From positions 62,001 to 126,000 of the forward strand of contig JAYWIR010000071.1 in NCBI GenBank assembly GCA_036172245.1: DNA of 64,000 nucleotides, read 5' to 3'. The notes beneath the pieces were generated by a model. It was not told the origin of the DNA. It did not search any database and was given only the letters and a program-made list of their open reading frames with translations. Below, in pieces: positions 7,878-52,625 of this stretch (positions within the stretch are counted from its first letter, which is position 1; each line of letters opens with the position of its first letter). The DNA comes from Raillietiella orientalis. Its lineage: Eukaryota. Made by a program: the position numbers and the translations under genes.

Positions 7878-7988
7878 TGCCCTCTCGGGGCACGCAAAAA
7901 TTGCCGCGGCAGTGGTTTTACGCACTGCCTTGGCGGGGTATTGGGTAAAGTTTTCAACTAGCAATAATCGCGGCTCAGTCGCCTTCCT
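7878..7988 (-). ncRNA. U4: 5'-truncated U4 snRNA copy (nt 30-140) between E5 and E6
   Basis: 111 nt matching U4 nt 30-140. Confidence 0.93.
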
Positions 7989-8079
7989 TTCCCCAGTCCG
8001 GCGTGCGGTGGGGTATATTTATTTTAAACAATAACAAAAGACACTTATTATAAATGCTGCGGCCCAATCGGGTGCATCT

Positions 8080-11000
8080 TCACACCGTCCCGGCCGCACA
8101 TTGCACTATCCTGAGGCAATGTTGGAAGGTCCACGAGGGGACTCTCCCGCATGCTCGAATGTTTATTTCCTTTTTCAAGAGTCCGCAAAGGACGTCCAGG
8201 GCACTGCACGATTCACCTAGGCCTAGCTTAAACCTTCGTATGAGAATACTTCTCATGAAGGAGGCCACGATCACTCTCACGGTGGGATTGTAGCGGGGTA
8301 CTCCGTCTTCGCCCTCGAAGAGTCCTCTCAGGATCTCGAGCGTCGACATTTCCTCCATCCTCACCGCCCTCCTCACGGTCTTCCAGTTTCTCGCGAGGGT
8401 GCGGCAGGTGTATATGTGAAGGTCATCCTCGATTGACCCACATCCTGGGCACCCGTCGTCGTCGGGATTTCCGGTCCAGTGCTGAAGCCTCGTGCCACAC
8501 AGTATGCCTCCGTGATAAAACATCAGCAGGCAGTCCTGTATGTCCGGTGGTAACGAGGATCTCCATAGGACCATCCCGATTGCCTGTGCGTGGACGCCGG
8601 GATTGCCTAACCTACACTTGATCTTCATCATCGCCTCGGACGGTGTTGTTTCCTGGAGACTAAGGAGGTTATTGTTCTGGAGGTTTACCCTGGACCATTG
8701 GGAGCCCTGATCTTTCCAGAGCTCCCGGGTTTTATGGGTTATCTTCCCCTCCAGCTGACGTTTGTATGCGAGGACTCGGCGGGCGTGTATAACTACGCTA
8801 TTCGCCAGTCGCTCCGTGTCTTCCATGGTGATCTTTCGGGTCTTCCTGATCCACTTTTCAGTGTCCCACGGTACGTTCATGAACAGGGGAATCACCTTGG
8901 TGACTTCCCTGTTCCAGACTTCTTTACTTCGGGGTACCACTCGCAGTTTCAAAGTCCATGTTAAACGCTGGATTCGAGGCCACGTAGGGTCCACTTGGTC
9001 CCAGCCGCCCGCGGTGAGCGTCACGGCTGACGTGAGGCCGTCGGTTCCGTGCACCATTCTTGCGAAGGCACGGTGGAACGCGAACGGCCACTCGTCCCAT
9101 GCGCTGACCATTCGGACCAGGTTTTTCAGGTCCTGGAGTTTCACGGCACTTGCGACTGTGCGCATGCCGGTTCCTCCTTCCGTCCGCGGGCGGCACAGGT
9201 ACCGCAATTTCGTCTTGGGTCGTTTCCCGCTCCAGACAAGGTTCCTCTGGATGGCGGCCAGGTGTTTTGCCGTCCTCGGGGGAAACGATGAAAAGGACGC
9301 TGCGAAGAGAAACTTCGGCGCCATCACCCCGTTCCACAGGTTCGCCTTGTCCTTCTGGGAGAAGGATCTTCCGGTGTATTGGCTGGCTTCTTCGCGCAGC
9401 TTGGCCAAGATGTTGGACCATTGCTGCGCCTCCAGGGCAGGTGTTTCTTCGCCGATGCGTATCCCCAGGTACTTCACGTTGTCCTCGATCTGGTAGCCGT
9501 GGGCGTGCAGGACGGTGACGTCCGGGATTCCCACGGCGAGCAGATGGGACTTGTTGGGGTTCACTCGGAGTCCGAGGCCGCACTCCATGGCCTGCACGAC
9601 GTCCAGGAATGACTCCTGGTCCTGCTCGTCGGTCATGACGAATACCAGGTCGTCTGCGTAGGCCAGGTGTGTGATCTTGGGTTCTTGTTCGCCGAGGTCG
9701 ATACCCTTCAGTTGGCTCTCGTGTTCAACGAAGGCACTGACTGCCTCCATGTACAGTACGAAGAGCATGGGACTCAGGGCATCTCCCTGTCGGACTCCTT
9801 TTTCCATCTTGATGCTAGTCGACGATAGCCCGTTGACGACTATCGAGAAGTTGGCCTCTTCCAAGGTATGAGCCACGTGCTGCACGAATCTCCCCTGGAA
9901 GCCAAGTTTTCCGAGGATTTTCAGCAGCATGGCGTGGTCCACCGAGTCGAAGGCCTTCTCGATGTCGGTGAAGCCCAGTACCAGGTCCATTCCTACGGTA
10001 CGGCTGTACCCTCGGAGGGCCTGGATACACTTCAGGTTATCCCACATGCGTCTGCCTGGCACGGCACACGTCTGTGTGGGGGAAACCGCGGACTTCATGC
10101 ATTGGCTCAGCCTGTTTGCCCAGATCTTCGCCATCCATTTCGCGTCCGAATTCAGTACGGATATGGGTCTCCACTGCGTGACGCTGTGGAGGTCCCCGCC
10201 GCTCTTGGGGAGCAGCCTCATCCTGCTTCGGTGAAAGGAGGCGGGCAGTCGATGTTCCTGGTCGATGCATTCCAGCAGCTGACGGAACAGGCGCAGGTAG
10301 TGCGTTACGTGCCTCTGATAGTGCGTTACGGGGACGCTATCCGGGCCCGCAGCCACATCCTTGCGCAATCCGTCGAAAGCCGCTTTGATCTCCTCGACTG
10401 TAAATTGCTTTTCCAGGTCGTTGATTTCTTTGGAGGTCAGGCGTTTCTTCACGCAACGGAGGATCCGCTCCTGACCTCCCGGGTCCAAAGTCGCTATCTT
10501 GAATAATTCGGTGTAGTGGTGTTGGAATGCTTCCAGCACTTGCTCCGAGGTCCTGTAGTCCTTATCCTGGTAACGGACATGGAATATGTCCGTTGCCAGG
10601 TTTCGCTTCTCCAGCCGTCCGATGTCCTTTTTCACGCTTTTCTCGAGGAAGCGACTCTGGTACTGTTCCCAGTACACGGAGTGGGAGGGATGGAATTCAC
10701 ACATCTCCCTGTACGCTTCCTCGCGGGGATCCCGATCGCCGTACTGCATGTTGGAGAAGAGGTGGATGGTGTGTTTCAGGGCATCCCAGTCGTCCACGCG
10801 CAGGATGTTGGTCGTGGCAAGGATGGTTTCCACGACGCGCTGGTACGGCGGAAAACGTTCGTACCATTCGGGCATGCAGATGAGTGCGGCCCGAGGTGGT
10901 GCGTTTTCCTTCCTGGGATTCCTGGATGTCATTCTCCATTTCAGCAGGGGATGGTCCGAGATTCCGGTACTCAGTTCCCGGATCCCCTGCATGCGGTTCG

Positions 11001-11592
11001 CCAGAGTTCCCGAGTGCAACACGTAGTCGATGTGCGTCGCGTTCGCTCCCGTGCACAGGAGGGACAGTTCCTCCATCATGCAGCGGTACACGTCGTACGC
11101 ACCCGACTCGTTGTGCCGACAGCCGTCCAGGCGGACGTTAAAGTCGCCTGCAATCACGACGACGTCTTTCGGGGTGATCTTGCTCTGGACTAGGCCTGCA
11201 AGACTTGTCGCGAAGGCTTTCTTGTTGAATAGTGGCCCGTACACGTTCACTACAAGTAGGTGAACGCTTCCGGACCACGCCATTCTCAATCCCACGACGC
11301 GGCCATTCCATCCGATGAAAACTTCCAGGACGGTAGGCGCAAGGGTCTGCTTGAGGAGAATGGCCACACCTTTGCGGTTAGTCGAGCCCTGGTTGACATG
11401 GACGTCGACTTGCAGTTCTCTTTCCAGTTCTTGGCATGCTTCGGGCGTCATGAAGTGGGTTTCCTGCAGGCAGCAGATTGCCTCCTGTCGTAAGAGCCAC
11501 TTCATATGTTTCCTGCTCATCGGGTTCGTGCATCCGTTGATGTTCCAGGATGCGAACCCGATTTTCCATGCTGACGATAGGTACTGGATCAT
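8080..11592 (-). CDS. E5 ORF2, APE-RT (1170 aa)
   Basis: SWNING, LQETH, GDFN, IDY, SDH; WRPISVLNSD, GVRQGD, YADD, YLG; CPGC...H...C. Confidence 0.95.
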   Translation of the reverse strand: MIQYLSSAWKIGFASWNINGCTNPMSRKHMKWLLRQEAICCLQETHFMTPEACQELERELQVDVHVNQGSTNRKGVAILLKQTLAPTVLEVFIGWNGRVVGLRMAWSGSVHLLVVNVYGPLFNKKAFATSLAGLVQSKITPKDVVVIAGDFNVRLDGCRHNESGAYDVYRCMMEELSLLCTGANATHIDYVLHSGTLANRMQGIRELSTGISDHPLLKWRMTSRNPRKENAPPRAALICMPEWYERFPPYQRVVETILATTNILRVDDWDALKHTIHLFSNMQYGDRDPREEAYREMCEFHPSHSVYWEQYQSRFLEKSVKKDIGRLEKRNLATDIFHVRYQDKDYRTSEQVLEAFQHHYTELFKIATLDPGGQERILRCVKKRLTSKEINDLEKQFTVEEIKAAFDGLRKDVAAGPDSVPVTHYQRHVTHYLRLFRQLLECIDQEHRLPASFHRSRMRLLPKSGGDLHSVTQWRPISVLNSDAKWMAKIWANRLSQCMKSAVSPTQTCAVPGRRMWDNLKCIQALRGYSRTVGMDLVLGFTDIEKAFDSVDHAMLLKILGKLGFQGRFVQHVAHTLEEANFSIVVNGLSSTSIKMEKGVRQGDALSPMLFVLYMEAVSAFVEHESQLKGIDLGEQEPKITHLAYADDLVFVMTDEQDQESFLDVVQAMECGLGLRVNPNKSHLLAVGIPDVTVLHAHGYQIEDNVKYLGIRIGEETPALEAQQWSNILAKLREEASQYTGRSFSQKDKANLWNGVMAPKFLFAASFSSFPPRTAKHLAAIQRNLVWSGKRPKTKLRYLCRPRTEGGTGMRTVASAVKLQDLKNLVRMVSAWDEWPFAFHRAFARMVHGTDGLTSAVTLTAGGWDQVDPTWPRIQRLTWTLKLRVVPRSKEVWNREVTKVIPLFMNVPWDTEKWIRKTRKITMEDTERLANSVVIHARRVLAYKRQLEGKITHKTRELWKDQGSQWSRVNLQNNNLLSLQETTPSEAMMKIKCRLGNPGVHAQAIGMVLWRSSLPPDIQDCLLMFYHGGILCGTRLQHWTGNPDDDGCPGCGSIEDDLHIYTCRTLARNWKTVRRAVRMEEMSTLEILRGLFEGEDGVPRYNPTVRVIVASFMRSILIRRFKLGLGESCSALDVLCGLLKKEINIRACGRVPSWTFQHCLRIVQCAAGTV

Positions 11593-11612
11593 CGACGGGC
11601 TGTGGAGACGGT

Positions 11613-13115
11613 CTATTTGACCTTTCTCTTCTTTTTGGACAGTGGTGCCCTTGTCTGGGCGCGCCTGTCCTTCTTTCTATTTCCCCTGTTTCCCTGGTCT
11701 CTAGCGCCCTCCTCCTCGGAGTTGTCCTCTTCCGAGTTGCAGGAGAGCACTACTTGGATTTCCGCTTCCTCCCCCTGTTTAGGTTTCTCCTCCTTAAGTA
11801 CGAGGGGGGTTAGGCTGACGTACACTTGCTCCTCAAGGTGCATCGCTGCCTGAGGCGAGATTGTCTCTTGCCTCAGGCTTTCCAGCAGCTCTTTCGACTG
11901 CTGGAATGCCAGCCCTTTTTCTTGGTCGTTCGCGACCTCGCTAATTGTTGAGCGAAGGTCGTCAATTTTCGCCTGCAGGTCGCTCGTGGTTGCCTCGTGC
12001 CCGATTTCTCCCTTGGGAGTCTCGTCGGTGGAGGCTACGGGCTCTTTTCGCTCCCTGCTTCTCCCGCTGTCGATTGGTGCCGCCTGGGTTTTCCTTTCTG
12101 GAGTAGGGGGAAGAGAAGGCTTGGAAGTCTCCACCGGAGTTTCGGGAGAGCTCTCCTTTTGCTTTCTCCTCTCTTCCTGGAAGGCTAGCCAATCTTGGTA
12201 TTTGTGGCATTCCTTCCTCTCGTGCCCCCCGGCCTTGCAAAAGTAGCAACGCTTGGGGCGTTCGCATGCGGCATCAGCGTGCTTCGCCTTGCCGCAGTGC
12301 TTGCACCTTCTCTCCGGGCAAACCACCGTCCTGTGACCGAAAACCATGCAGGTGCGGCAGAAGTCCGGTTGTTCACGGTACGCCACGCGTACTAGGTGCG
12401 AGTTCTCGTCGATTCGGACCAGGGTAGGGATCTGCGCCCCTTTCCGCATCCGGATTTTCACGATGGCTTCTCCACCGTACCTTTTCTGGTGGTAGCCAAT
12501 TTCGTTCATGCGGACGACTTCGCCGTATTGATCGAAGTATTCCATCACCGCGTCTACTTCCGTCATCGGATGCACTCCGGACAAGTACACCGACGTAGCC
12601 GCGAGTTCGGAAACTCCGCGGATGATGTGGCCGTTTATTTCGAGGCCGTTCTCCACCAAATCGTCGATGAGCTCGGGTTTATCCGTATACACGGCGAAAC
12701 CCCCCACGTAAAAAACGATGGCTTTCACATCTTCGAAGTCGATCCTCTTACGGTGAATCGCGAGGTATATCTCGCGAACGGAGTTGTTGGTCAGTCGACC
12801 CATGAGAAAAGTGACCGCAGTGACCTCCGGGCCGAATTTTCGCATGGGGCCTGAACCCCTCTTCAACTCTCTCCCGACGATAACGCCGTTTCCCACTGCT
12901 GATGCAACTCCCGAACTGGACGCAGCCACGCTCACGTACGACGGCGCTGCGGGTACCTGACCTGCTGTCGCAGCTGCGGACGTCGTTGCGATCGCCGTGG
13001 AGGGTCCAGCTTGCACTTGCATCCTGGATTTCTTTTCCCCTCTCTTCCCTGGAATTCCTGTATTCCTCGGTTTCCCACGTGCGTTGGTGGATAGTGAAGG
13101 GTCCACCTTCCTCAC
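11613..13115 (-). CDS. E5 ORF1 (RRM-like + 3 CCHC knuckles); first ATG at 13022
   Basis: CRTCMVFGHRTVVC, CKHCGKAKHADAAC, CYFCKAGGHERKEC; basic C-terminus SKKKRKVK. Confidence 0.87.
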   Translation of the reverse strand: MRKVDPSLSTNARGKPRNTGIPGKRGEKKSRMQVQAGPSTAIATTSAAATAGQVPAAPSYVSVAASSSGVASAVGNGVIVGRELKRGSGPMRKFGPEVTAVTFLMGRLTNNSVREIYLAIHRKRIDFEDVKAIVFYVGGFAVYTDKPELIDDLVENGLEINGHIIRGVSELAATSVYLSGVHPMTEVDAVMEYFDQYGEVVRMNEIGYHQKRYGGEAIVKIRMRKGAQIPTLVRIDENSHLVRVAYREQPDFCRTCMVFGHRTVVCPERRCKHCGKAKHADAACERPKRCYFCKAGGHERKECHKYQDWLAFQEERRKQKESSPETPVETSKPSLPPTPERKTQAAPIDSGRSRERKEPVASTDETPKGEIGHEATTSDLQAKIDDLRSTISEVANDQEKGLAFQQSKELLESLRQETISPQAAMHLEEQVYVSLTPLVLKEEKPKQGEEAEIQVVLSCNSEEDNSEEEGARDQGNRGNRKKDRRAQTRAPLSKKKRKVK

Positions 13116-13147
13116 TTTGCACCGAACACTGTTTTTTCACGATCACT

Positions 13148-13268
13148 TGCCCTCTCGGGGCACGCAAAAATTGCCGCGGCAGTGGTTTTACGCACTGCCT
13201 TGGCGGGGTATTGGGTAAAGTTTTCAACTAGCAATAATCGCGGCTCAGTCGCCTTCCTCGCCTACGAT
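13148..13268 (-). ncRNA. U4: 5'-truncated U4 snRNA copy (nt 20-140) between E4 and E5
   Basis: 121 nt matching U4 nt 20-140. Confidence 0.93.
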
Positions 13269-16200
13269 TTTCCCCAAGTCCCACAGGGGGTGGGGTAAAT
13301 TTATTTTCTATAAAAATACAATTTTACATTCACACTCACATTCACTCTATGTTTACTCTTTGTCTTTCACTTTGAAGTCCTGGGGGGGTACACTAGAGTA
13401 CTGCTTTTTACTTCAGGGTGGATTTCCAGCTGGATGGTCCCGGGCGTCGTCCTCAATCCTCTTCAGGATGAATCTGTACGTCCAGGCTTGGATGCGTCCA
13501 CAATTCCTGATGCCGATCTCCTTCTTGATGAGTCCTTGCAGGATCTCCATCGGGGTTGCGGCTCTGCTGGCTCTTCTCATCTTCCACCACCGCACAAGTA
13601 TGGCGGTGATGAAGAGGGCAATGGTCGTCCTCACCATGGGATTGTAACAGGGAACATTACCATTTCCCTGAAACATCCCGGCGAGGATCTCCATCACGGA
13701 ACTGGTCGTCATTCCAATGATCCTTTTCAGGATCAGCCAGTCGTGAAGGAGTGTGGGACACGTCAAGATGTGAAGTCTTGTATCGTTGTCACCACACGCC
13801 GTGCAGTCTCCGTCTTCCCGTCTTCTGGTGAAGTGCTTGAGTCTGGACCCGCTCAGGATACCTCCATGGTAAAACATCAGGAGGTTGTCCTGGGTGTCCG
13901 GCGGAAGGTCACTCCTCCAGAGCGTTGTGCCGATCGCCAACAGGTTGATGCGATCGCTCCCGTAGCGGTCGGCGGCTTCTTGGAGGGCACTGGTGTCCTT
14001 TTCTTCGTCTCTGATCATCTTCCGGAGGTTCATTTTGGTCACCCTCGACCACGCGAAGTCGTTGTGGTTAATCCACACCTCGCGGGTCTGGTGGGTGAAC
14101 CTCCCTAACATCATCTCTATGTACCGGAGTACACGAGAATGATGTAGGTATCCTCCTCGGCGCCATTCCTGGATCCGTTGCAGGGTAACTCTGGGCCGCT
14201 GGTAGATCCAGCTTCTCGTGTCCGGAGGGACCGGAAGCATCCAGGGGATCACCAGGATGGACTCGTCCTGCCAGAGTTCCCTGCTTCTTGGCACGATCTT
14301 CATCTTGTGCTTTCGCACAAGCCGCTGTTTTCTTCTCCAGGTAGGGTCGATGGTGATCCATTCCCCTGCTCGGCCTAGCAGCGCAGTCATCAGGCCTTTC
14401 GAGTTGTTCAGCAACAACGCGTAGGCCCTGTGCGCCGCATACGGCCAGTCATCCCAGTGAGTGGCTATGTCCAGGATGTGTCGCGTATCCATGATTTCCA
14501 TGGAATGTGCAGGCGACTTCATCCCGGAACCGCCTTCTTCCCTGGGACGACACAGAGGTTTGAGACGGACTCTTGGGCGATAATGGCCCCACAAAGTTTT
14601 CCTTTGCAGCTTTTCTACTTCCCTCGTGGTATCTTTATTCATTCTTGCGAAGGCCGCCCCGAAGAGTATCTTTGGTAGAAGTACTCCGTTCCACAGGTTG
14701 GCTCTTCGCTTCATGTTAAAGTCCACTCGAGTGTACTTCGCTGCTTCGTTGGCCGTTTTCCCCAGGATTTCCGTCCACAGCAGTTTCGACGCAGAGTCGT
14801 CGCCGATGTAGACTCCCAGGTACTTGGCCGTGTCCACCGTACGGAATCCACTCCCCGTTAGAGTGGAGAGGTTCAGGATTCCGACGGGCAAAAGCTGGCT
14901 CTTTTGGGCATTGATTTTCAAGCCCAGTCCCTGTTCCATGAGGTCGACCACATCCAGGAACGCTCGTTGATTCCTCTCTCCCTTGATGAAGAAGAGGAGA
15001 TCATCTGCGTATGCCAGATGGGTCAGGTGCTGACCATCAATGGAAATCCCTGATAGACGACCGCTTCTCTCGATGTAAGAAGACAGCGCCTCCATGTATA
15101 TGACGAACAGCATTGGACTTAGCGAGTCGCCCTGCCGGACTCCTCGTTCCATCCTAATTGCTGCCGTCTCTTGGCCGTTGATTTTGATACGGCAGTACTG
15201 GTTTTGGAGTACCGCCCTCACGAAGTTGCTGAAGTGTTCCGGAAGCCCAAGCTTCTCCAGAACCTTCAGCAGCATCCCGTGGTCGATGGAGTCGAAGGCC
15301 TTCTCCATGTCAGTGAACACCAGCACCAGGTTCTCGCCGACGTATCGGCTGAGTCCGACGGTGGCCTGGGCGCACTTGACATTGTCAGACATGTGTCGTC
15401 CTGGGACTGCACACGTCTGGACCGGAGAGATCAGCCTCGACATGACCCTGCCTAAGCGGTTGGACCAGATCTTCGCCAACCACTTGGCATCTGAGTTTAG
15501 GATCGAGATCGGCCTCCATTGAGCGATCTGCGTGAGATCGCCTCCTTTTGGCAGCAATCTCATCCTACTCTCGTAGAAGGATTCCGGAAGTCGTCCTTCT
15601 TCTCGGATGCAGAGTGTCAACTGGTGGAACAAACGCAGGTAGGCGTGCAGGTACCGCTGATAGTGCGAGATGGGTACACTATCAGGGCCTGCTGCCACAT
15701 CCTTGCGAAGCTGCCCAAACGCAGTCTTCACTTCCTCTTCGGAGAACTCCTCCTCCAGTCTACTTCTTTGGAGGTCGTCCGTCCTCTTCTCGAGGTAACC
15801 CAGGAAGGCTTGCTGACTCGAGCGGCAGAGATCTTGTCGTCGGAAGTGTCTCGCGTAATGCCTGTGAAAGGCTTCCGCGATATCCTCCGACGTGTGCCGC
15901 TCTTGGCCGTCGTACTGGATGCAGAAGATATCTGTCGCCAGATTCCTCTTTTCCAGCACGCCGACCTCCCCTTTCGTGTTCTGGAAGACGTACCGACTCT
16001 CGTACTGATCGAAGTACTTCGAGAGGGAGCGATCTTGAATGTCCAGCTCCCGGTACGCTTCCTGCCTCATACGCTTGCAAAAGTACTGCATGTTGCAGAA
16101 CAGATCGATCCTGTGCTTCAACCTGTCCCAGTCGGCGACTCTGCGTATGGTGGTGTCCCGCAGAATAGCCTCGATGACCTCCTGGTGACAGGGAAGCGTT

Positions 16201-18850: not shown

Positions 18851-18967
18851 TGCCCTCTCGGGGCACGCAAAAATTGTTGCGGCAGTGGTTTTACGCACTG
18901 CCTTGGCGGGGTATTGGGTAAAGTTTTCAACTAGCAATAATCGCGGCTCAGTCGCCTTTCTCGCCTA
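18851..18967 (-). ncRNA. U4: 5'-truncated U4 snRNA copy (nt 24-140) between E3 and E4
   Basis: 117 nt matching U4 nt 24-140. Confidence 0.93.
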
Positions 18968-19130
18968 TTTTCCCCAGGTCCCACAAGGGGTGGGGTAAAT
19001 TTATTTTCCTATAAAAACATTCACGCTACAATCACATTCATACACTTTCACTTTTCCTCACTTATCACTGGTCACTTTGGCACTTGTCCTTGAAGTTCAC
19101 TTCTGGGCGTCTGAGAAGTCACTGCTCTAC

Positions 19131-22100: not shown

Positions 22101-22112
22101 AAAAAGGTGGTT

Positions 22113-23741: not shown

Positions 23742-23969
23742 CGCCGCTGTGGCGCCAGAAACACACGATTACCCTACCTCCATGGGCTGAGGCTTCTCCG
23801 TGGTTCCCATCCACCGCTGCTCTTGCATCTTGACGGGGTGCTGCTGCACCGCCGCCGGGGAGGGTCGCGACTCCTCCACCTTGGACTCCCTATGGCTGCT
23901 GCTGCTGCTGCTGCACTCGCTGTGGGACGTCCTGAGTAGCGCACTCACTGTTTTTTTTCACTATTCACT

Positions 23970-24089
23970 TGCACTCTCGATGCACGCAAAAATTTCCGCG
24001 GCAGTGGTTTTACGCACTGCCTTGGCGGGGTATCGGGTAAAGTTTTCAACTAGCAATAATCGCGGCTCAGTCGCCTTCCTCGCCTCGAT
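23970..24089 (-). ncRNA. U4: 5'-truncated U4 snRNA copy (nt 20-140, T24 deleted) between E2 and E3
   Basis: 120 nt; 1-nt deletion at U4 nt 24; variant terminal hairpin TGCAT-CGAGA-GTGCA. Confidence 0.93.
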
Positions 24090-24243
24090 TTTCCCCAAGT
24101 CCCACAAGGGGTGGGGTAAATTTATTTTCTATAAAAATACAATTTTGCATTCACACTCGCATTCACACTCACATTCACTCTATGTTTCCTCTTTGTTTTT
24201 CACTTTGAAGTCCTGGGGGGTACACTAGAGTACTGCTTTTACC

Positions 24244-27200: not shown

Positions 27201-27761
27201 CGGCTTGTGGCTAGCTGTTCGCCACAAAAGTCCGAACTCGTCGGACAGCAGCCGATACGCCGCTCTTCCCCTTGCATCCTGAGAATACTTGATTTCATCA
27301 AGGATGTTGAAATCCCCAGCGACGATGACTATGTCCTTCGGTGCCACTCGTTTGCGGAGTTCTTCTTGCAGTTTCTCCGCGCACCGATGCTTGATCTTGT
27401 GCGGTCCGTAGACGTTCACCAGGAAGAGGTGAACGTTACTGGACCAGGACAGTCGCACGCCGATTACTCTGCCAGGTACCGGACAGAAAGTTTCCAGAAT
27501 GGTGTGGGCGAGCTCGTTCTTGATGAGGATCGCCACCCCCATGGTCTTCTTCTGTCCCTCGCTGGCGAACAGTTGTCCGTCGAATCGGCGTTCCATCTCC
27601 AGGGCGTTCTGCTGCCCGAGACGGTGGATTTCTTGTAGGCACACCACATCCTGTCTTGCGATGGTCCGCATGACACTTTTTCTCTTTCCCTGGTCCGTCA
27701 GTCCATTCACATTCCAGGAGGCGATGTTAATCCTCCTGGCACTGGACAGCAACCAGGCCAT
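24244..27761 (-). pseudogene. E2 ORF2 pseudogene (APE-RT)
   Basis: TAA stops at 26334-26336, 26034-26036 and 25419-25421, plus a 1-nt deletion near 25354, relative to E1. Confidence 0.9.
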
Positions 27762-27777
27762 GAAATGGGGGGGAGTT

Positions 27778-29649
27778 CTACTTCACCTTTCTTGCCTTCC
27801 TTAGCTTCTTCTGCTGGGGAGACTTGTTCAGTTTCTCTGCTGAAGAAGTGGGTTTTTCACTGCCGGCATCGCTCTCGGTGCCGGTGTGATCAGTGGACTC
27901 CTGTTCGTCCACAGAGCGTTCCGCCTTGGCGACCACCTTGCGCGGAAGGGTCTCCAGTGAGACCGTCGCAAAGAATGCCGCCTTCAGGTCGCCCAGCTGG
28001 TCCTCCAGCTTTTCCCGCTCTGGTTCTACAACCATGCGGTTTACGTCGTCTTGGACCTCGCAGATGCGGTTCAGGATTTTTGCCTGTTCCGCCTCCGGTT
28101 GGCCCTGGCGAACCTCCTCTGCCAGTTTAACCACCTCCTCGGAAAGTTGCAGGGCCTCCTGCGTCTCCGGGACTGGTTCTGGCGTCTTCTCCTCCTTCTC
28201 CGTTTCCTCCGCCACCTCCATACTCTCGCCTACCGCTGCTTCAACAACCGGGGTTTGAGGAATCTGTTGCTCCCTTGCGAGCATCTTCCTTTTCCCCTTC
28301 TTCCCCACCTCCACGAAGCCGTCTGCCGAAACCGGAGCGGCCTCTCTTGCTTTCCTCTGCTTTGCTAGCTGAGGTTTGATTACCTCAGCTAGCACCCTTT
28401 CCCTCACCGGGGACTCTCCTCTAATCGTCCGGTAGTTTGCATACTCCGGACAGCTCCATTTCGCATGCCCTGGTTGCTTGCAAAAGGAGCATAGCTCGTG
28501 CATGCTACAGTTCCGGACCTGGTGGCCCTGTTTCCCGCACCTGAAGCAGCGAGATCTAGGGCAGGCACCCATCCGGTGGCCAAAGTCCTTGCAACCGAGA
28601 CAGAAGATCGGTTGCTGACGGTACCTGACGTTCACCTCTTGCGAGGCTTCGTCAATGTGCACCAAACCGGGGATTTGGGCACCTTCTTTAAGCTTAATTT
28701 TGGCGATTACTTCGCCCGAGAAGATGTCTCCGGAGATGTTCTGGAAGTTTACATCCAGAACCTTTCCGTATTTCTCCAGGAAATCCCACACCGTTTCTTG
28801 CTCGGTGAAGATTCCCACTCCTCTGAGGTGGACGGTGGTGTAAGGCATTTCTCCTACTCCTTGTACCATTTTTCCCTGAATATTGATGCCCTTTTCGATT
28901 AGGGCCTCCCGCAATTCCTCGCAGTCCGTGTACAGTGTAAAACCTGACGTGCTGGGAATGATCGCTTGGAGAAGATCAAAGTCGACGTTGGTTGTAAAGA
29001 GAGCACAGTACACCTCTCTTACGTTGTTAAACCGGATCAATCCGGTCTTAAACATAATTGGTTTCGACGCTGGACTTAGGCGAACCATTGGTTCTTTGCA
29101 TCGCGTGATGCGTCCAGTCGTCGGCTTCCTGAATGTTCGGTTTGGCTGGGCAGAGGCCTGCCCCGCCGTAACCGACGCATACGAAAACGGCTTTGTAGCC
29201 GAACCCGAACAAGATGGCGTCGCCATGTACGCCGCGTGGACGCCCGGGGCTCCCGCCTGGGACGCCGCCGCCGCCGCTGCGGGCGCAACCCTCGTCGTCG
29301 CCGTCGCCGATGTCGCCGTAGGCGGGACCTTCGGCATCGCCGCCGCCGGCACGACCTTCCCCGCCGCGGGCGCGATCCTCGGCGTCGCCGCCGCCGGCGC
29401 AGCAAAGCCTGCCGCGGGCGCGACCCTCGGCGTCGCCGCTGCCTCCTCGCCACTGCCGCATATTACCTCCATGTGTTCTTCCATGAGGGTCGACGGCTGC
29501 TCCACTTCCAGACGGTGCCTCCTTGCGGCTGCCGTTGCTGCCGCACTTCCTGTTTGGAGGACTTCCACCTCGGGTCCTTCGGCGCTGCTGCTGCTGCTGC
29601 TGTCGGGTATTTCCGTCGGTGGCACAGTTACTTCCACACTATCTTTCAC
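27778..29649 (-). CDS. E2 ORF1 (RRM-like + 3 CCHC knuckles)
   Basis: CLGCKDFGHRMGAC, CFRCGKQGHQVRNC, CSFCKQPGHAKWSC; open frame. Confidence 0.87.
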   Translation of the reverse strand: MKDSVEVTVPPTEIPDSSSSSSAEGPEVEVLQTGSAAATAAARRHRLEVEQPSTLMEEHMEVICGSGEEAAATPRVAPAAGFAAPAAATPRIAPAAGKVVPAAAMPKVPPTATSATATTRVAPAAAAAASQAGAPGVHAAYMATPSCSGSATKPFSYASVTAGQASAQPNRTFRKPTTGRITRCKEPMVRLSPASKPIMFKTGLIRFNNVREVYCALFTTNVDFDLLQAIIPSTSGFTLYTDCEELREALIEKGINIQGKMVQGVGEMPYTTVHLRGVGIFTEQETVWDFLEKYGKVLDVNFQNISGDIFSGEVIAKIKLKEGAQIPGLVHIDEASQEVNVRYRQQPIFCLGCKDFGHRMGACPRSRCFRCGKQGHQVRNCSMHELCSFCKQPGHAKWSCPEYANYRTIRGESPVRERVLAEVIKPQLAKQRKAREAAPVSADGFVEVGKKGKRKMLAREQQIPQTPVVEAAVGESMEVAEETEKEEKTPEPVPETQEALQLSEEVVKLAEEVRQGQPEAEQAKILNRICEVQDDVNRMVVEPEREKLEDQLGDLKAAFFATVSLETLPRKVVAKAERSVDEQESTDHTGTESDAGSEKPTSSAEKLNKSPQQKKLRKARKVK

Positions 29650-29657
29650 TAGGCACT

Positions 29658-29778
29658 TGCCCTCTCGGGGAACGCAAAAATTGCCGCGGCAGTGGCTTTA
29701 CGCACTGCCTTGGCGGGGTATTGGGTAAAGTTTTCAACTACCAATAATCGCGGCTCAGTCGCCTTCCTCGCCTACGAT
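29658..29778 (-). ncRNA. U4: 5'-truncated U4 snRNA copy (nt 20-140) between elements E1 and E2
   Basis: 121 nt nearly identical to U4 nt 20-140 with a few substitutions; lacks the U4/U6 stem II segment. Confidence 0.93.
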
Positions 29779-32700
29779 TTTCCCCAAGTCCCACAAGGGG
29801 TGGGGTAAATTTATTTTCTATAAAAATACAATTTTTGCATTCACACTCACATTCACTCTATGTTTACTCTTTGTCTCTCACTTTGAAGTCCTGGGGGGTT
29901 CACTAGAGTTCTGCTTTTACCTCAGGGTGGATTTCCAGCTGGATGGTCCCGGGCGTCGTCCTCGATCCTCTTCAGGATGAATCTGTACGTCCAGGCTTGG
30001 ATGCGTCCACAATTCCTGATGCCGATCTCCTTCTTGATGAGTCCTTGCAGGATCTCCATCGGGGTTGCGGCTCTGCTGGCTCTTCTCATCTTCCACCACC
30101 GCACAAGTATGGCGGTGATGAAGAGGGCAATGGTCGTCCTCACCATGGGATTGTAACAGGGAACATTACCATTTCCCTGAAACATCCCGGCGAGGATCTC
30201 CATCACGGAACTGGTCGTCATTCCAATGATCCTTTTCAGGATCAGCCAGTCGTGAAGGAGTGTGGGACACGTCAAGATGTGAAGTCTTGTATCGTTGTCA
30301 CCACACGCCGTGCAGTCTCCGTCTTCCCGTCTTCTGGTGAAGTACTTGAGTCTGGACCCGCTCAGGATACCTCCATGGTAAAACATCAGGAGGTTGTCCT
30401 GGGTGTCCGGCGGAAGGTCACTCCTCCAGAGCGTTGTGCCGATCGCCAACAGGTTGATGCGATCGCTCCCGTAGCGGTCGGCGGCTTCTTGGAGGGCACT
30501 GCTATCCTTTTCTTCGTCTCTGATCATCTTCCGGAGGTTCATTTTGGTCACCCTCGACCACGCGAAGTCGTTGTGGTTAATCCACACCTCGCGGGTCTGG
30601 TGGGTGAACCTCCCTAACATCATCTCTATGTACCGGAGTACACGAGAATGATGTAGGTATCCTCCTCGGCGCCATTCCTGGATCCGTTGCAGGGTAACTC
30701 TGGGCCGCTGGTAGATCCAGCTTCTCGTGTCCGGAGGGACCGGAAGCATCCAGGGGATCACCAGGATGGACTCGTCCTGCCAGAGTTCCCTGCTTCTTGG
30801 CACGATCTTCATCTTGTGCTTTCGCACAAGCCGCTGTTTTCTTCTCCAGGTTGGGTCGATGGTGATCCATTCCCCTGCTCGGCCTAGCAGCGCAGTCATC
30901 AGGCCTTTCGAGTTGTTCAGCAACAACGCGTAGGCCCTGTGCGCCGCATACGGCCAGTCATCCCAGTGAGTGGCTATGTCCAGGATGTGTCGCGTATCCA
31001 TGATTTCCATGGAATGTGCAGGCGACTTCATCCCGGAACCGCCTTCTTCCCTGGGACGACACAGAGGTTTGAGACGGACTCTTGGGCGATAATGGCCCCA
31101 CAAAGTTTTCCTCTGCAGCTTTTCTACTTCTCTTGTGGTTTCTTTATTCATTCGTGCGAAGGCCGCCACGAAGAGTATCTTTGGTAGAAGTACTCCGTTC
31201 CACAGGTTGGCTCTTCGCTTCATGTTAAAGTCCACTCGAGTGTACTTCGCTGCTTCCTTGGCCGTTTTCCCCAGGATTTCCGTCCACAGCAGTTTCGACG
31301 CAGAGTCGTCGCCGATGTAGACTCCCAGGTACTTGGCCGTGTCCACCGTACGGAATCCACTCCCCGTTAGAGTGGAGAGGTTCAGGATTCCGACGGGCAA
31401 AAGCTGGCTCTTTTGGGCGTTGATTTTCAAGCCCAGTCCCTGTTCCATGAGGTCGACCACATCCAGGAACGCTCCTTGATTCCTCTCTCCCTTGATGAAG
31501 AAGAGGAGATCATCTGCGTATGCCAGATGGGTCAGGTGCTGACCATCAATGGAAATCCCTGATAGACGACCGCTTCTCTCGATGTAAGAAGACAGCGCCT
31601 CCATGTATATGACGAACAGCATTGGACTTAGCGAGTCGCCCTGCCGGACTCCTCGTTCCATCCTAATTGCTGCCGTCTCTTGGCCGTTGATTTTGATACG
31701 GCAGTACTGGTTTTGGAGTACCGCCCTCACGAAGTTGCTGAAGTGTTCCGGAAGCCCAAGCTTCTCCAGAACCTTCAGCAGCATCCCGTGGTCGATGGAG
31801 TCGAAGGCCTTCTCCATGTCGGTGAACACCAGCACCAGGTTCTCGCCGACGTATCGGCTGAGACCGACGGTGGCCTGGGCACACTTGACATTGTCAGACA
31901 TGTGTCGTCCTGGGACTGCACACGTCTGGACCGGAGAGATCAGCCTCGACATGACCCTGCCTAAGCGGTTGGACCAGATCTTCGCCAACCACTTGGCATC
32001 TGAGTTTAGGATCGAGATAGGCCTCCATTGAGCGATCTGCGTGAGATCGCCTCCTTTTGGCAGCAATCTCATCCTGCTCTCGTAGAAGGATTCCGGAAGT
32101 CGTCCTTCTTCTCGGATGCAGAGTGTCAACTGGTGGAACAAACGCAGGTAGGCGTGCAGGTACCGCTGATAGTGCGAGATGGGTACACTATCAGGGCCTG
32201 CTGCCACATCCTTGCGAAGCTGCCCAAACGCAGTCTTCACTTCTTCTTCGGAGAACTCCTCCTCCAGTCTACTTCTTTGGAGGTCGTCCGTCCTCTTCTC
32301 GAGGTAACCCAGGAAGGCTTGCTGACTCGAGCGGCAGAGATCTTGTCGTCGGAAGTGTCTCGCGTAATGCCTGTGAAAGGCTTCCGCGATATCCTCCGAC
32401 GTGTGTCGCTCTTGGCCGTCGCACTGGATGCAGAAGATATCTGTCGCCAGATTCCTCTTTTCCAGCACGCCGACCTCCCCTTTCATGTTCTGGAAGACGT
32501 ACCGACTCTCGTACTGATCGAAGTACTTCGAGAGGGAGCGATCTTGGATGTTCAGCTCCCGGTACGCTTCCTGCCTCATACGCTTACAAAAATACTGCAT
32601 ATTGCAGAACAGATGGATCCTGTGCTTCAACCTGTCCCAGTCGGCGACTCTGCGGATGGTGGTGTCCCGCAGAATCGCCTCGATGACCTCCTGGTGACAG

Positions 32701-35393
32701 GGAAGCGTTTCGAACCAGGCGGGCATGCAGATGAGCGCCGCCCTGGTGGCCTTTTCCCTACGGGGATTTTCAGTGCGGAGTGTAAACCGTACCAATGGGT
32801 GATCGGACAACAGGTGTGGAATGTCACGAAAACCCTGGATGCGGTTGTCTATCTCCGCACTGTGGAGGACGTGATCGATCGGTTTGTGGCTAGCTGTTCG
32901 CCACAAAAGTCCGAACTCGTCGGACAGCCGCCGATACGCCGCTCTTCCCCTTGCATCCTGAGAATACTTGATTTCATCAAGGATGTTGAAATCCCCAGCG
33001 ACGATGACTATGTCCTTCGGTGCCACTCGTTTGCGGAGTTCTTCTTGCAGTTTCTCCGCGCACCGATGCTTGATCTTGTGCGGTCCGTAGACGTTCACCA
33101 GGAAGAGGTGAACGTTACTGGACCAGGACAGTCGCACGCCGATTACTCTGCCAGGTACCGGACAGAAGGTTTCCAAAATGGTGTGGGCGAGCTCGTTCTT
33201 GATGAGGATCGCCACCCCCATGGTCTTCTTCTGTCCCTCGCTGGCGAACAGTTGTCCGTCGAATCGGCGTTCCATCTCCAGGGCGTTCTGCTGCCCGAGA
33301 CGGTGGATTTCTTGTAGGCACACCACATCCTGTCTTGCGATGGTCCGCATGATACTTTTTCTCTTTCCCTGGTCCGTCAGTCCATTCACATTCCAGGAGG
33401 CGATGTTAATCCTCCTGGCACTGGACAGCGACGAGGCCATGAAAGGGGGGGGAGTCCTACTTCACCTTTCTTGCCTTCCTTAGCTTCTTCTGCTGGGGAG
33501 ACTTGTTCAGTTTCCCTGCTGAAGAAGTGGGTTTTTCACTGCCGGCATCACTCTCGGTGCCGGTGTGATCAGTGGACTCCTGTTCGTCCACAGAGCGTTC
33601 CGCCTTGGCGACCACCTTGCGCGGAAGGGTCTCCAGCGAGACCGTCGCACAGAATGCCGCCTTCAGGTCGCCCAGCTGGTCCTCCAGCTTTTCCCGCTCT
33701 GGTTCTACAACCATGCGGTTTACGTCGTCTTGGACCTCGCAGATGCGGTTCAGGATTTTTGCCTGTTCCGCCTCCGGTTGGCCCTGGCGAACCTCCTCTG
33801 CCAGTTTAACCACCTCCTCGGAAAGTTGCAGGGCCTCCTGCGTCTCCGGGACTGGTTCTGGCGTCTTCTCCTCCTTCTCCGTTTCCTCCGCCACCTCCAT
33901 ACTCTCGCCTACCGCCGCTTCAACTACCGGGGTTTGAGGAATCTGTTGCTCCCTTGCGAGCATCTTCCTTTTCCCCTTCTTCCCCACCTCGACGAAGCCG
34001 TCTGCCGAGACCGGAGCTGCCTCTCTTGCCTTCTTTTGTTTCGCTAGCTGAGGTTTGATCACCTCAGCTAGCACCCTTTCCCTCACGGGGGATTCTCCAC
34101 GGATTGTCCGGTAGTTAGCAAACTCCGGACAACTCCATTTCGCATGCCCGGGTTGTTTGCAGAACGAGCAAACTTCGGGCATGGTGCAATTTCGGACCAC
34201 GTGGCCCATCTTTCCGCACCGGAAACAGCGCGACCTAGGGCACGCGCCCATCCGGTGGCCAAAGTTTTTGCAGCCGGTGCAAAAGATCGGCTGCTGCCTG
34301 TATCGAATTGAGACGTCCTGCGACGCCTCGTCGATATGCACGTTTCCGGGGATTTGCGCCCCCTCCTTTAATTTTATCTTGGCGATCAGCTCGCCCGAGA
34401 AGATGTTTCCGGAGATGTTCTGGGTTTTCATCTCCAGAACCTCTCCGTATTGGGACAGGAAGTCCCACACCGTTTGTCTCTCGGTGAGGATGCCAAGGCC
34501 ATTCACGAAGACGGTCGTGTAAGGCATCTCGCCGATGCCTTGCACCATCTTCCCTTGGATGTTGATGCCCTTTTCGATAAGGGCCTCCCGCAGCTCCTCG
34601 CAGTCTGTATAAAGGATAAATCCCGCTGAGTTCGGGATTATCGCCTGCAGCCGGTCAAAGTCCACATTCGTCTTGTAGAGGGCGCAGTACACCTCCCTCA
34701 CATTGTTGAACCGGATCAGTCCGGTTTTAAAAATTATCGGCTTGGACGCCGGGCTGAGTCGAACCATCGGCTCCTTCGTTCGAGTGATGATTTCACTCGC
34801 CGGTTTGCCGAATGCTCTATTCGGTTGGGCAAAGGCCTGCCCCGCCGTCACCGCCGCATACGAAAAAGGCGGTTTCGCCGTCGCCGCCGAGCAAGATGGC
34901 GTCGCACCTTGCACTGTGTGCGCCGCGTGGACGCCCGCGGCTCCCGCCTGGGACGCCGCCGCCACCGCGGGCGCGACCCTCGGCGTCGCCGCTGCCTCCT
35001 CGCCACTGCCGCATATTACCTCCATGTGTTCCTCCATGTGGAGCAGCCGTCGACCCCCTTCTTCCTTGTGCCTCCTTGCGGCTGCCGTTGCTGCCGCGCT
35101 TCTTGTTTGGAGGACTTCCACCTCGGGTCCTTCGGCGCTGCTGCTGCTGCTGCTGTCGGGTATTTCCGTCGGTTGCACAGTCACTTCCACACTATTCTTT
35201 TCGAGGCACTTGATCTGTTCTTCCATGGGGGTCGACGGCTGCTCCACTCCTTGGATGTGCCTCCTTGCGGCTGCCGTTGCTGCCGCACTTCTTGTTTGGA
35301 GGACTTCCACCTCGGGTCCTTCGGCGCTACTGCTGCTGTCGGGTATTTCCCTCGGTGGCACAGTCACTTCCACACTATTCTTCGGCAGGCACT
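29779..35393 (-). mobile_element. E1: L1/Tx1-clade non-LTR retrotransposon, family A, apparently intact, directly downstream of the intact U4 gene
   Basis: ORF1 + ORF2 (APE, RT, zinc finger); 3' UTR with AATAAA, terminal hairpin and short A-tail joined to U4 nt 20. Confidence 0.93.
29922..33440 (-). CDS. E1 ORF2, APE endonuclease-reverse transcriptase (1172 aa)
   Basis: APE motifs SWNVNG, LQE, GDFN, IDH, SDH; RT motifs WRPISILNSD, DMEKAFD, GVRQGD, YADD, YLG; C-terminal CTAC...H...C. Confidence 0.95.
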   Translation of the reverse strand: MASSLSSARRINIASWNVNGLTDQGKRKSIMRTIARQDVVCLQEIHRLGQQNALEMERRFDGQLFASEGQKKTMGVAILIKNELAHTILETFCPVPGRVIGVRLSWSSNVHLFLVNVYGPHKIKHRCAEKLQEELRKRVAPKDIVIVAGDFNILDEIKYSQDARGRAAYRRLSDEFGLLWRTASHKPIDHVLHSAEIDNRIQGFRDIPHLLSDHPLVRFTLRTENPRREKATRAALICMPAWFETLPCHQEVIEAILRDTTIRRVADWDRLKHRIHLFCNMQYFCKRMRQEAYRELNIQDRSLSKYFDQYESRYVFQNMKGEVGVLEKRNLATDIFCIQCDGQERHTSEDIAEAFHRHYARHFRRQDLCRSSQQAFLGYLEKRTDDLQRSRLEEEFSEEEVKTAFGQLRKDVAAGPDSVPISHYQRYLHAYLRLFHQLTLCIREEGRLPESFYESRMRLLPKGGDLTQIAQWRPISILNSDAKWLAKIWSNRLGRVMSRLISPVQTCAVPGRHMSDNVKCAQATVGLSRYVGENLVLVFTDMEKAFDSIDHGMLLKVLEKLGLPEHFSNFVRAVLQNQYCRIKINGQETAAIRMERGVRQGDSLSPMLFVIYMEALSSYIERSGRLSGISIDGQHLTHLAYADDLLFFIKGERNQGAFLDVVDLMEQGLGLKINAQKSQLLPVGILNLSTLTGSGFRTVDTAKYLGVYIGDDSASKLLWTEILGKTAKEAAKYTRVDFNMKRRANLWNGVLLPKILFVAAFARMNKETTREVEKLQRKTLWGHYRPRVRLKPLCRPREEGGSGMKSPAHSMEIMDTRHILDIATHWDDWPYAAHRAYALLLNNSKGLMTALLGRAGEWITIDPTWRRKQRLVRKHKMKIVPRSRELWQDESILVIPWMLPVPPDTRSWIYQRPRVTLQRIQEWRRGGYLHHSRVLRYIEMMLGRFTHQTREVWINHNDFAWSRVTKMNLRKMIRDEEKDSSALQEAADRYGSDRINLLAIGTTLWRSDLPPDTQDNLLMFYHGGILSGSRLKYFTRRREDGDCTACGDNDTRLHILTCPTLLHDWLILKRIIGMTTSSVMEILAGMFQGNGNVPCYNPMVRTTIALFITAILVRWWKMRRASRAATPMEILQGLIKKEIGIRNCGRIQAWTYRFILKRIEDDARDHPAGNPP

Positions 35394-35409
35394 TGCCCTG
35401 TGAGGGCAC
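33457..35409 (-). CDS. E1 ORF1, gag-like RNA-binding protein (RRM-like region + 3 CCHC zinc knuckles)
   Basis: CTGCKNFGHRMGAC, CFRCGKMGHVVRNC, CSFCKQPGHAKWSC. The open frame begins at a GTG inside the U4 3' hairpin; the true start is probably a downstream ATG (MEE...). Confidence 0.88.
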   Translation of the reverse strand: MPSQGKCLPKNSVEVTVPPREIPDSSSSAEGPEVEVLQTRSAAATAAARRHIQGVEQPSTPMEEQIKCLEKNSVEVTVQPTEIPDSSSSSSAEGPEVEVLQTRSAAATAAARRHKEEGGRRLLHMEEHMEVICGSGEEAAATPRVAPAVAAASQAGAAGVHAAHTVQGATPSCSAATAKPPFSYAAVTAGQAFAQPNRAFGKPASEIITRTKEPMVRLSPASKPIIFKTGLIRFNNVREVYCALYKTNVDFDRLQAIIPNSAGFILYTDCEELREALIEKGINIQGKMVQGIGEMPYTTVFVNGLGILTERQTVWDFLSQYGEVLEMKTQNISGNIFSGELIAKIKLKEGAQIPGNVHIDEASQDVSIRYRQQPIFCTGCKNFGHRMGACPRSRCFRCGKMGHVVRNCTMPEVCSFCKQPGHAKWSCPEFANYRTIRGESPVRERVLAEVIKPQLAKQKKAREAAPVSADGFVEVGKKGKRKMLAREQQIPQTPVVEAAVGESMEVAEETEKEEKTPEPVPETQEALQLSEEVVKLAEEVRQGQPEAEQAKILNRICEVQDDVNRMVVEPEREKLEDQLGDLKAAFCATVSLETLPRKVVAKAERSVDEQESTDHTGTESDAGSEKPTSSAGKLNKSPQQKKLRKARKVK

Positions 35410-35533
35410 ACAAAAATTGCCGCGGCAGTGGTTTTACGCACTGCCTTGGCGGGGTATTGGGTAAAGTTTTCAACTAGCAATAATCGCGGCTCAGTCGCCT
35501 TCCTCGCCTACGATACTGCCCGTGCGCAAGGCT
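35394..35533 (-). ncRNA. U4: U4 spliceosomal snRNA, full length (140 nt)
   Basis: Minus strand reads AGCCTTGCGCACGGGCAGTATCGTAGGCGAGGAAGGCGACTGAGCCGCGATTATTGCTAGTTGAAAACTTTACCCAATACCCCGCC...GCAATTTTTGTGTGCCCTCACAGGGCA, colinear with human U4 (AGCTTTGCGCAGTGGCAGTATCGTAGCC...GCGATTATTGCTAATTGAAAACTTTTCCCAATACCCCGCC). It has the U6-pairing stem II and stem I, a K-turn (GGC-GAG-GA...GA-GCC), an Sm site AATTTTTG and a terminal hairpin. Confidence 0.96.
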
Positions 35534-38008: not shown

Positions 38009-38029
38009 TGTGTGTGTGTGTGTGTGTGT
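38009..38029. repeat. (TG)n microsatellite
   Basis: About 10 TG units. Confidence 0.9.
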
Positions 38030-49179: not shown

Positions 49180-49220
49180 TCCTCCTCCTCCTCTTCCTCC
49201 TCCTCCTCCTCCTCCTCCTC
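49180..49220. repeat. (TCC)n microsatellite
   Basis: About 13-14 TCC units, reading as poly-Glu on the minus strand. Confidence 0.9.

Positions 49221-52591: not shown

Positions 52592-52625
<34 letters not shown>

Follow-up and report, generated by a model that had tools for sequence, protein, structure and literature searches.

How can a retrotransposon that cuts into an essential small nuclear RNA (snRNA) gene leave that gene whole on its upstream side? The question is raised by a 64,000-nucleotide (nt) window of contig JAYWIR010000071.1 of Raillietiella orientalis (assembly GCA_036172245.1), which represents one locus only and in which six retrotransposons are stacked within a U4 snRNA gene, each with a copy of U4 directly before it. 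An earlier note on this DNA had read these copies as RNA-derived, each U4 body coming from a donor locus at which U4 and the element are transcribed together, by analogy with R2 and 28S, and had kept a long target-site duplication (TSD) as the alternative. Our analysis favours, at a little below an even chance, a duplication of ~120 bp that derives from the target itself, with later recombination or mutation, as the explanation of the U4 copies.

Six retrotransposons in one U4 gene

The U4 copies were called with the Rfam RF00015 covariance model, by the gathering score and by an E-value search. Six matches were found in the window, all on the minus strand, all with scores of at least 46 bits and at a spacing of 5.1-5.9 kb; five of the six reach the Rfam gathering score, and the sixth (18852-18990, 46.0 bits) was recovered by the E-value search. 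The region is a head-to-tail stack of six L1-like retrotransposons of the non-LTR type (lacking long terminal repeats) with an apurinic-like endonuclease (APE) and a reverse transcriptase (RT), on the minus strand and inside one U4 gene (Table 1). Each complete element is followed by U4 nt 21-140 (E6 is without a downstream U4). The first 20 nt of U4, the part that pairs with U6, occur once in the window, at U4_a only. The pieces U4_b to U4_f start at U4 nt 20/21, and the 5′ end of RF00015 is matched there by a stem-loop at the 3′ end of the element, which Rfam aligns to U4 nt 1-20, giving "full-length" U4 hits. The junction of the element 3′ end with U4 nt 21 may mimic the original target.

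The five element-to-U4 3′ junctions, which represent four element lineages at the one locus, all fall at U4 nt 20/21. At U4_b and U4_e they are exact, U4 continuing from nt 21; at U4_c, U4 likewise continues from nt 21, and a single nucleotide is missing 3 nt into U4; and 3 nt and 9-12 nt of U4 are lost at U4_d and U4_f, respectively. These varied junctions look like independent target-primed events, and the insertion is site-specific, independent copies having entered at one target nucleotide. At the opposite end of the elements, every U4 piece ends with the terminal hairpin, and AGTG stands directly after U4 nt 140 in all six cases, followed by the element 5′ untranslated region (UTR). The starts of all families consist of AGTG, 3-4 variable letters and GTGAAA(A/G)A, the 5′ UTRs being otherwise diverged. 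The GTGAAA(A/G)A motif lies 7-10 nt past the U4 3′ end in all families, and its sequence and spacing resemble those of the snRNA 3′ box; with a genuine box, normal processing of the restored U4 upstream could still take place. Should the 3′ flank of an element-free U4 gene start with AGTG...GTGAAAGA, the first ~20 nt of the "element" would be target flank.

The elements belong to at least three families, with identities ranging from 66 to 95%. E1, E2 and E4 (family A) are mutually 93-95% identical. Identity to family A is 80-88% for E6 (A′), about 70-74% for E3 (family B) and about 66% for E5 (family C), the last being alignable in part of the second open reading frame (ORF2) only. In ORF2 of E1, E3, E4 and E5 we found PF03372 (E 1e-13 to 5e-18) and PF00078 (E about 1e-33), with the apurinic-like endonuclease domain N-terminal to the RT; toward the C terminus of ORF2, C1043, C1046, H1054 and C1058 are invariant in an alignment of the three families. 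A zf-CCHC domain is present in ORF1 of E1, E3, E4 and E6, and none was found in ORF1 of E5. The solved protein closest to ORF2 is human LINE-1 ORF2p (7.4e-56), compared to only 9.2e-27 for R2. These matches mark the elements as APE-type non-LTR retrotransposons of an L1/Tx1-like kind. Two of the reading frames are altered in ways of their own. A 1-nt deletion in E4 at ~16943 (E4 position 1908), just before the ORF1 stop, puts ORF1 and ORF2 in one frame, and E3 is without about 540-590 nt of the ORF2 C-terminal region that is present in family A (989 versus 1172 aa in E1).

The differences between ORF1 of E1 and that of E2 amount to 7.1, 5.3 and 26.9% at the three codon positions. Among E1, E2 and E4, ORF1 is ~13% diverged (third positions 25-32%), compared to a pairwise divergence of only 1-2% in ORF2. 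The bias toward third positions means that the elements diverged as active lineages and are not copies made in place; tandem duplication in place is rejected for this reason. The elements are distinct lineages under selection with a mosaic history, and their insertions are independent. The mosaic divergence of E1, E2 and E4 suggests either recombination between lineages or homogenisation of ORF2.

The 5′ end of E1 (35393-35202, minus strand) consists of a partial copy, c1 (element positions 1 to ~178), the letters GATC, and a full 5′ end, c2, from position 1. The c1-GATC-c2 arrangement is the mark of a template jump at the RNA 5′ end, and the start of c2 at element position 1 implies that this element RNA began after U4, and not at U4 +1. 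The two copies are 15% different, and the first long ATG frame of E1 runs from c1 across the joint into ORF1. E6 stops abruptly at 5421, where ORF2 has only just begun, and unrelated sequence of lower G+C content lies beyond; this leaves the window without the last remnant of U4 and without its native 3′ flank. An apparent relic of the U4 3′ end in E1 and E6 (element positions 471-490) was attributed to chance, as 63 and 46 of 200 shuffles, respectively, score equally.

Table 1. Positions of the U4 pieces, the elements and their termini in the window
Feature	Position	Strand	Description
U4_a	35394..35533	-	Sole full-length U4 (nt 1-140) with upstream flank; RF00015 99.5 bits, model 1-138
U4_a hairpin	35408-35394	-	TGCCC-TCACA-GGGCA, before E1
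E1	29779..35393	-	Family A, 5615 nt; ORF1 (650 aa) and ORF2 (1172 aa) open; APE, RT and CCHC domains
U4_b	29658..29778	-	U4 nt 20/21-140, between E1 and E2; 3 private substitutions
U4_b hairpin	29672-29658	-	TTCCC-CGAGA-GGGCA, before E2
E2	24090..29657	-	Family A, 5568 nt; ORF2 broken, with frames of 475 and 379 aa; gap of 1 nt at E4 position 4326
U4_c	23970..24089	-	5 private substitutions and a 1-nt deletion; before E3
U4_c hairpin	23984-23970	-	TGCAT-CGAGA-GTGCA, before E3
E3	18968..23969	-	Family B, 5002 nt; ORF2 989 aa
U4_d	18851..18967	-	U4 begins 3 nt later at the junction; 3 private substitutions; before E4
E4	13269..18850	-	Family A, 5582 nt; ORF1 and ORF2 fused in an 1809-aa frame
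U4_e	13148..13268	-	U4 nt 20/21-140; equals the majority sequence; before E5
E5	7991..13147	-	Family C, 5157 nt; ORF1 (500 aa listed) and ORF2 (1170 aa) open
U4_f	7878..7990	-	First 9-12 nt of U4 21-140 missing, rest equals U4_e; before E6
E6	5421..7877	-	Family A′, 5′ 2457 nt only; ORF1 broken
Element starts (examples)	29657-29633, 23969-23945, 13147-13123	-	AGTG...GTGAAA(A/G)A
Conserved element 3′ end	29778-29800, 24089-24111, 18968-18990, 13268-13290	-	CCCCTTGTGGGACTTGGGGAAAA; terminal stem-loop, last ~23 nt
Family C element 3′ stem-loop	7989-8008	-	Inner C-G swapped to G-C (compensated pair)

Variation among the U4 pieces

The earlier note had quoted the terminal hairpins before E1, E3, E4, E5 and E6 and had concluded that the hairpin is maintained by compensatory change. 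The quoted letters are correct as read in the window, the pieces before E4, E5 and E6 all having TGCCC-CGAGA-GGGCA. The head before E2, which the note had omitted, is different: a G-to-T change breaks a G-C pair, and the canonical stem is gone in the predicted fold (-6.8 versus -9.0 kcal/mol). The U4_a hairpin is able to form six pairs with a CAC loop (fold of -8.6 kcal/mol); the four changes of this piece are all in unpaired columns, and one of them adds the sixth pair. In U4_c, a C-G pair has become A-U by changes on both sides and a U-G pair has arisen as well, and the hairpin is weakened from -9.0 to -5.1 kcal/mol; 59 of 200 shuffles fold equally well.

The six pieces were aligned and the pairs of an Rfam-derived structure (25 pairs, 138 cells) were counted. 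Of these cells 96.4% are paired. A single pair among the 25, the one in U4_c, has changed on both sides, a count that 75 of 500 shuffles equal, and the one U-G wobble is in the same piece. The compensated pair is outweighed by four broken ones, of which one is in U4_b, one in the central stem of U4_c and two in the central stem of U4_d. In simulations, one or more compensated pairs arose by chance in the four mutated pieces with a probability of 0.029 under uniform placement of the changes and of 0.070 when their 3′ clustering was kept. The substitutions fall in paired columns in 7 of 15 cases, compared to 6.5 expected. Thus, no selection on U4 structure is seen, the substitutions neither avoiding nor compensating paired positions, and upkeep by compensatory change, as proposed, is not established by the count. 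The Sm site, AATTTTTG, is kept in all six pieces, as had been noted. We rejected its retention as a sign of function, since with 15 substitutions in 116 columns only about one hit is expected in 8 nt, and the observation is uninformative.

Complementary changes in both arms of a hairpin can also be made without selection, by template-switch mutation. Mutation of this type occurs in these sequences, as indicated by a small inversion in E1. In c2 of E1, at 35058-35039 (minus strand), 20 nt are the exact reverse complement of the homologous stretch in E1 c1 and in E6, and at least 18 of the 20 nt of the homologous form are found in E2 and E4 as well.

The heads are copy-specific, in agreement with the earlier note: all 15 substitutions are private to one piece, with four in U4_a, three in U4_b, five in U4_c, three in U4_d and none in U4_e or U4_f. 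They do not follow element family within the window. The family-A heads (a, b and d) have no derived change in common. Of these three, the head before E4 (d) has the majority hairpin and three private changes outside it, and the heads before E5 (family C) and E6 (A′) match the majority sequence and each other. This majority is that of the six window pieces and may not be the genuine U4 of the organism. The suggestion that the heads travel with the element accordingly fails the family comparison that can be made within the window. Identity of the heads over 106-118 nt in lineages that are only 66% alike requires that they be reset from a common source. U4_a stands apart in that it differs from all five other pieces at the same four positions. 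Its changes are in the last 17 nt of U4 and adjoin the diverged first 17 nt of E1, so that the TCACA/TGTG variant of U4_a stands before the CCTGCCGAAGAAT-type element start of E1. U4_a and the start of E1 together look like one contiguous donor-type tract.

Contigs from three sequencing runs of one study (X1, X2 and X3) were available for comparison; X1 covers 0.55 of the words of the stretch, and X2 and X3 next to none. Among the matches listed, an X1 contig with a depth of 25.9 has an A-like 3′ end followed by U4 with majority letters at 29696 and 29741. These are two of the three private sites of U4_b, and the majority form is therefore common in X1. Also among the matches listed is a single X1 contig, one side of it 30 letters long, in which the 3′ end of U4 and AGTG are joined to about E1 position 489.

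Origin of the U4 copies

In the target-derived duplication that we favour, reverse transcription would be primed where the bottom strand is nicked, between U4 nt 20 and 21, as the junctions suggest, with a loss of target that varies from 0 to 12 nt, and the top strand would be opened ~120 nt downstream, presumably at the U4 3′ end. U4 nt 21-140 would be duplicated in the process, the whole U4 being restored upstream and a 5′-less remnant being left downstream. The U4 bodies would be made from the target at each insertion rather than carried by the element, and one U4 sequence, private changes aside, would thus be expected before elements that are only 66% alike. Most differences between copies would be private, damaging changes in remnants that have neither a promoter nor nt 1-20. 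The U4_a 3′ end and the first 17 nt of E1 would be accounted for by later recombination or gene conversion with another U4-element locus. Target-derived duplication best explains the common heads, the identity of the U4 pieces that flank E5 (complete over their shared part), an RNA that begins at element position 1 and a 5′ junction that is fixed. The X1 join at E1 position 489 hints at a 5′-shortened copy at a fixed top-strand break.

The differences between the two U4 pieces that flank an element were compared to an expectation of twice the private ORF2 rate of that element over 116 columns (10 private changes in 3478 nt for E1 and 42 for E2; E3 and E5 are without a date). The pieces on the two sides of E4 differ at three sites, compared to 2.0 expected (P = 0.32). 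Other results weigh against the duplication. The flanks of E1 differ at 7 of 116 sites, compared to 0.67 expected (Poisson P = 6.5e-6), and those of E2 at 8 sites, compared to 2.8 (P = 0.008). The earlier objection that a pure ~120-bp TSD is inadequate therefore stands for E1 and E2, and the identical flanks of E5 speak against that objection. The ORFs of E1 are open although its flanks differ, and the probability of their remaining open under neutral decay was 0.0013 at 3% and 0.037 at 1.5% in simulations. Pieces a to d together have 15 private changes in 464 nt, compared to 82 in 10434 nt of ORF2 in E1, E2 and E4 (Fisher P = 1.4e-5). Among the 15 substitutions, 11 fall within the 30 final columns, which adjoin the element (P = 1.6e-4), and 7 of 11 are located there when piece a is left out (P = 0.009); a plain TSD does not predict this clustering at the 3′ end. 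The recombination or conversion called upon for U4_a and E1 is an extra assumption, and among APE-type elements a fixed stagger of 120 nt is unusual. Homogenisation may have affected ORF2 of E1, E2 and E4, in which case the ORF2 clock is slow and the dating is weaker, and the window is without an element-free U4 gene or native 3′ flank for comparison.

The alternative that the U4 body before each element was rebuilt from RNA, be it the U4 part of a cotranscript or cellular U4 snRNA, is possible though on the doubtful side. For the first of these sources, which we think unlikely, a U4-element cotranscript would start from the U4 promoter, its U4 part would be reverse-transcribed, and the end of the complementary DNA (cDNA) would pair with target nt 1-20, so that the upstream body derives from the donor. 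The excess of differences between U4_a and U4_b across an intact E1 is what such a donor would produce, and the changed tract extends without interruption between U4 nt 124 and element position 17. Four lineages have the U4-element junction unaltered, and each head would remain beside its own element if the stack grows at the uppermost U4. The private changes of heads a to d (2.6-4.3%) are somewhat more frequent than those of the 3′ UTR (8 in 426 nt, E1, E2 and E4 combined) and far more so than those of ORF2. According to the part of PMC4494074 that cites Eickbush 2000 and Fujimoto 2004, R2 integrates more strongly at its specific site when the RNA includes target sequence from upstream. Long inheritance of the heads is nonetheless contradicted by their distribution, with identical heads before E5 and E6, three private changes before E4 and nothing shared within family A. 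The inner copy of E1 shows an RNA 5′ end at element position 1, and the contig that hints at a 5′-shortened copy still has it joined at the U4 3′ end. The putative snRNA 3′ box after U4 would favour termination over read-through. The R2 analogy of the earlier note was not borne out in this respect either, as the 10 Rfam matches obtained for the whole window with E up to 0.1 include no self-cleaving ribozyme family.

Were the source cellular U4, the RT would jump from the 5′ end of the element RNA onto a U4 snRNA, mature or nascent, at its 3′ end and copy it, and the cDNA would be joined upstream by homology; the upstream U4 body would then be a copy of cellular U4 RNA and the downstream remnant would be target DNA. 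We regard this course of events as improbable too, in spite of several attractions. In six of six cases the junction coincides with the end of the terminal hairpin of U4 or lies beside it, and a major snRNA as the source explains heads that are identical across families. U4_a is allowed as a second intact variant, its four changes being unpaired and one of them adding a pair. Jumps between templates occur in this family, to judge from c1-GATC-c2 in E1 and from the unequal divergence of ORF1 and ORF2. There is also precedent, in the available text of PMC4494074, in Tx1-mobilised SINEU, to which U1 or U2 sequences are added at the 5′ end by template switch, and in U6-L1 chimeras. However, a clean jump to U4 RNA is required six times out of six, and the visible jump in E1 has four extra letters. 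The pair-breaking private changes of b, c and d are left unexplained, as is the abutment of the diverged end of U4_a on a diverged element start. If either RNA-templated route is true, a long interspersed element (LINE) repairs the essential gene that it cuts with a fresh RNA-templated copy, and variant U4 3′ ends (TCACA) could spread between U4 loci with the element.

A very improbable arrangement would make U4 nt 21-140 the 3′ tail of the element upstream of it, the unit inserting after an intact U4 or after an earlier tail, with U4_a as the untouched host gene. U4_a alone does differ from the other five pieces at the same four positions, the likeness between the element 3′ end and U4 nt 1-20 is sufficient for an Rfam alignment, and the state of the junction could be lineage-specific (intact twice and with a 1-nt deletion once in A; -3 nt in B; -9-12 nt in C). 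The tails e (after E4) and f (after E5) are identical over the part they share, though, in elements whose 3′ UTRs are unalignable beyond the last ~45 nt, and there is no mechanism to keep the tails of three families equal. With the end of the array lost, the other readings predict the same picture.

Related elements and surrounding sequence

LINEs that insert site-specifically into multicopy RNA genes serve as models of targeted insertion without harm, and relatives of R2 are already used for genome engineering. The duplication made by R9, an R2 relative in the 28S ribosomal DNA (rDNA) of bdelloid rotifers, is reportedly 126 bp long. R9 has a restriction-like endonuclease and an rDNA target, whereas the duplication described here ends at the 3′ end of the target gene and regenerates the complete gene; the duplicated copies here are not always identical. 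That R9 likewise makes a long duplication is taken from a title cited in PMC5035012. A survey of 2015 lists Keno and Utopia (both in U2), Dada-U1 and Dada-U6 as the elements known from snRNA genes, in the portion of PMC4640811 available to us. We found no U4-targeting retrotransposon in the open full-text literature, including the 2022 Dada paper, Repbase and subscription journals being outside this search, and a U4-targeting LINE thus appears to be unreported in the searchable literature. The elements are of a known kind; what is new about them is the U4 target together with a long duplication that restores the gene, the long duplication as such being known from R9.

Keno, of the Tx1 clade and APE-type, likewise has one fixed site in an snRNA gene transcribed by RNA polymerase II (excerpts of PMC4494074 and PMC4640811); its target is U2, whereas the present elements target U4 with a duplication of ~118-120 bp that restores the whole gene upstream. 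Utopia resembles them in its snRNA-gene target, in tandem insertion within the target in one species, and in a precise 3′ and a variable 5′ junction, according to the sections of PMC4640811 on that element. The same sections give Utopia, in U2, a restriction-like endonuclease and a TSD of 0 or 20 bp, in contrast to APE and a ~120-bp U4 duplication here. Dependence on the promoter of the target gene, as for R2, is conceivable for the U4 elements too, and upstream target RNA can help the joining of the R2 5′ end (PMC4494074, in part). They differ from R2 in having an APE-type instead of a restriction-like endonuclease, in lacking a match to a hepatitis delta virus (HDV)-like ribozyme in the window, and in an element RNA that ends at position 1. 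In the U6-L1 chimeras and in SINEU with U1 or U2 heads, an snRNA 3′ end is recurrently joined to a retroposed 5′ end, as described in the same partial text. Those chimeras are at dispersed, non-snRNA sites and their heads run from nt 1; here the elements are in the U4 gene and the inner heads run from nt 21. Mutsu, in zebrafish 5S rDNA, is similar in its several subfamilies, many intact ORFs and downstream gene remnant, and each subfamily has its own target variant (both from the available part of PMC5340908). At the U4 locus, one site is common to at least three families and restoration of the gene takes place upstream, the site of family C being perhaps shifted by 9-12 nt relative to the shared one.

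To cut at nt 20/21 and nevertheless have a complete gene standing upstream would be a previously unknown means of sparing the target. Were the restored copy templated by RNA, a retrotransposon would also have a route by which to carry variants of an essential spliceosomal RNA gene from place to place in the genome. Under simple target-site duplication, the target is still new, and the gene-regenerating duplication is unusually long for an APE-type element.

Protein-database searches with the elements returned 31 relatives at 22-29% identity, which are unnamed or plant L1-like, and an Atlas search with their proteins returned generic APE and RT clusters only. In a metagenome scan with the three-family ORF2 alignment, 80 loci were kept, at 24-40% identity; all but one (L062) match only the first ~200 residues, that is, the endonuclease domain, and the locus of L062 has a wider span. 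The exact U4 pattern had no matches in genome_contigs and none in viral_contigs. Upstream of the U4 gene, at 36800-52000, there is a block rich in G+C (up to 69%), in which long ORFs are numerous on either strand. Pfam matched none of 10 ORFs, nine of them in the block at 36.8-51.6 kb and one in the flank at 62.6 kb. At 52570-52802, weak matches to mir-297 occur on both strands (33-35 bits, compared to a gathering score of 90); our guess is that they are a simple repeat.

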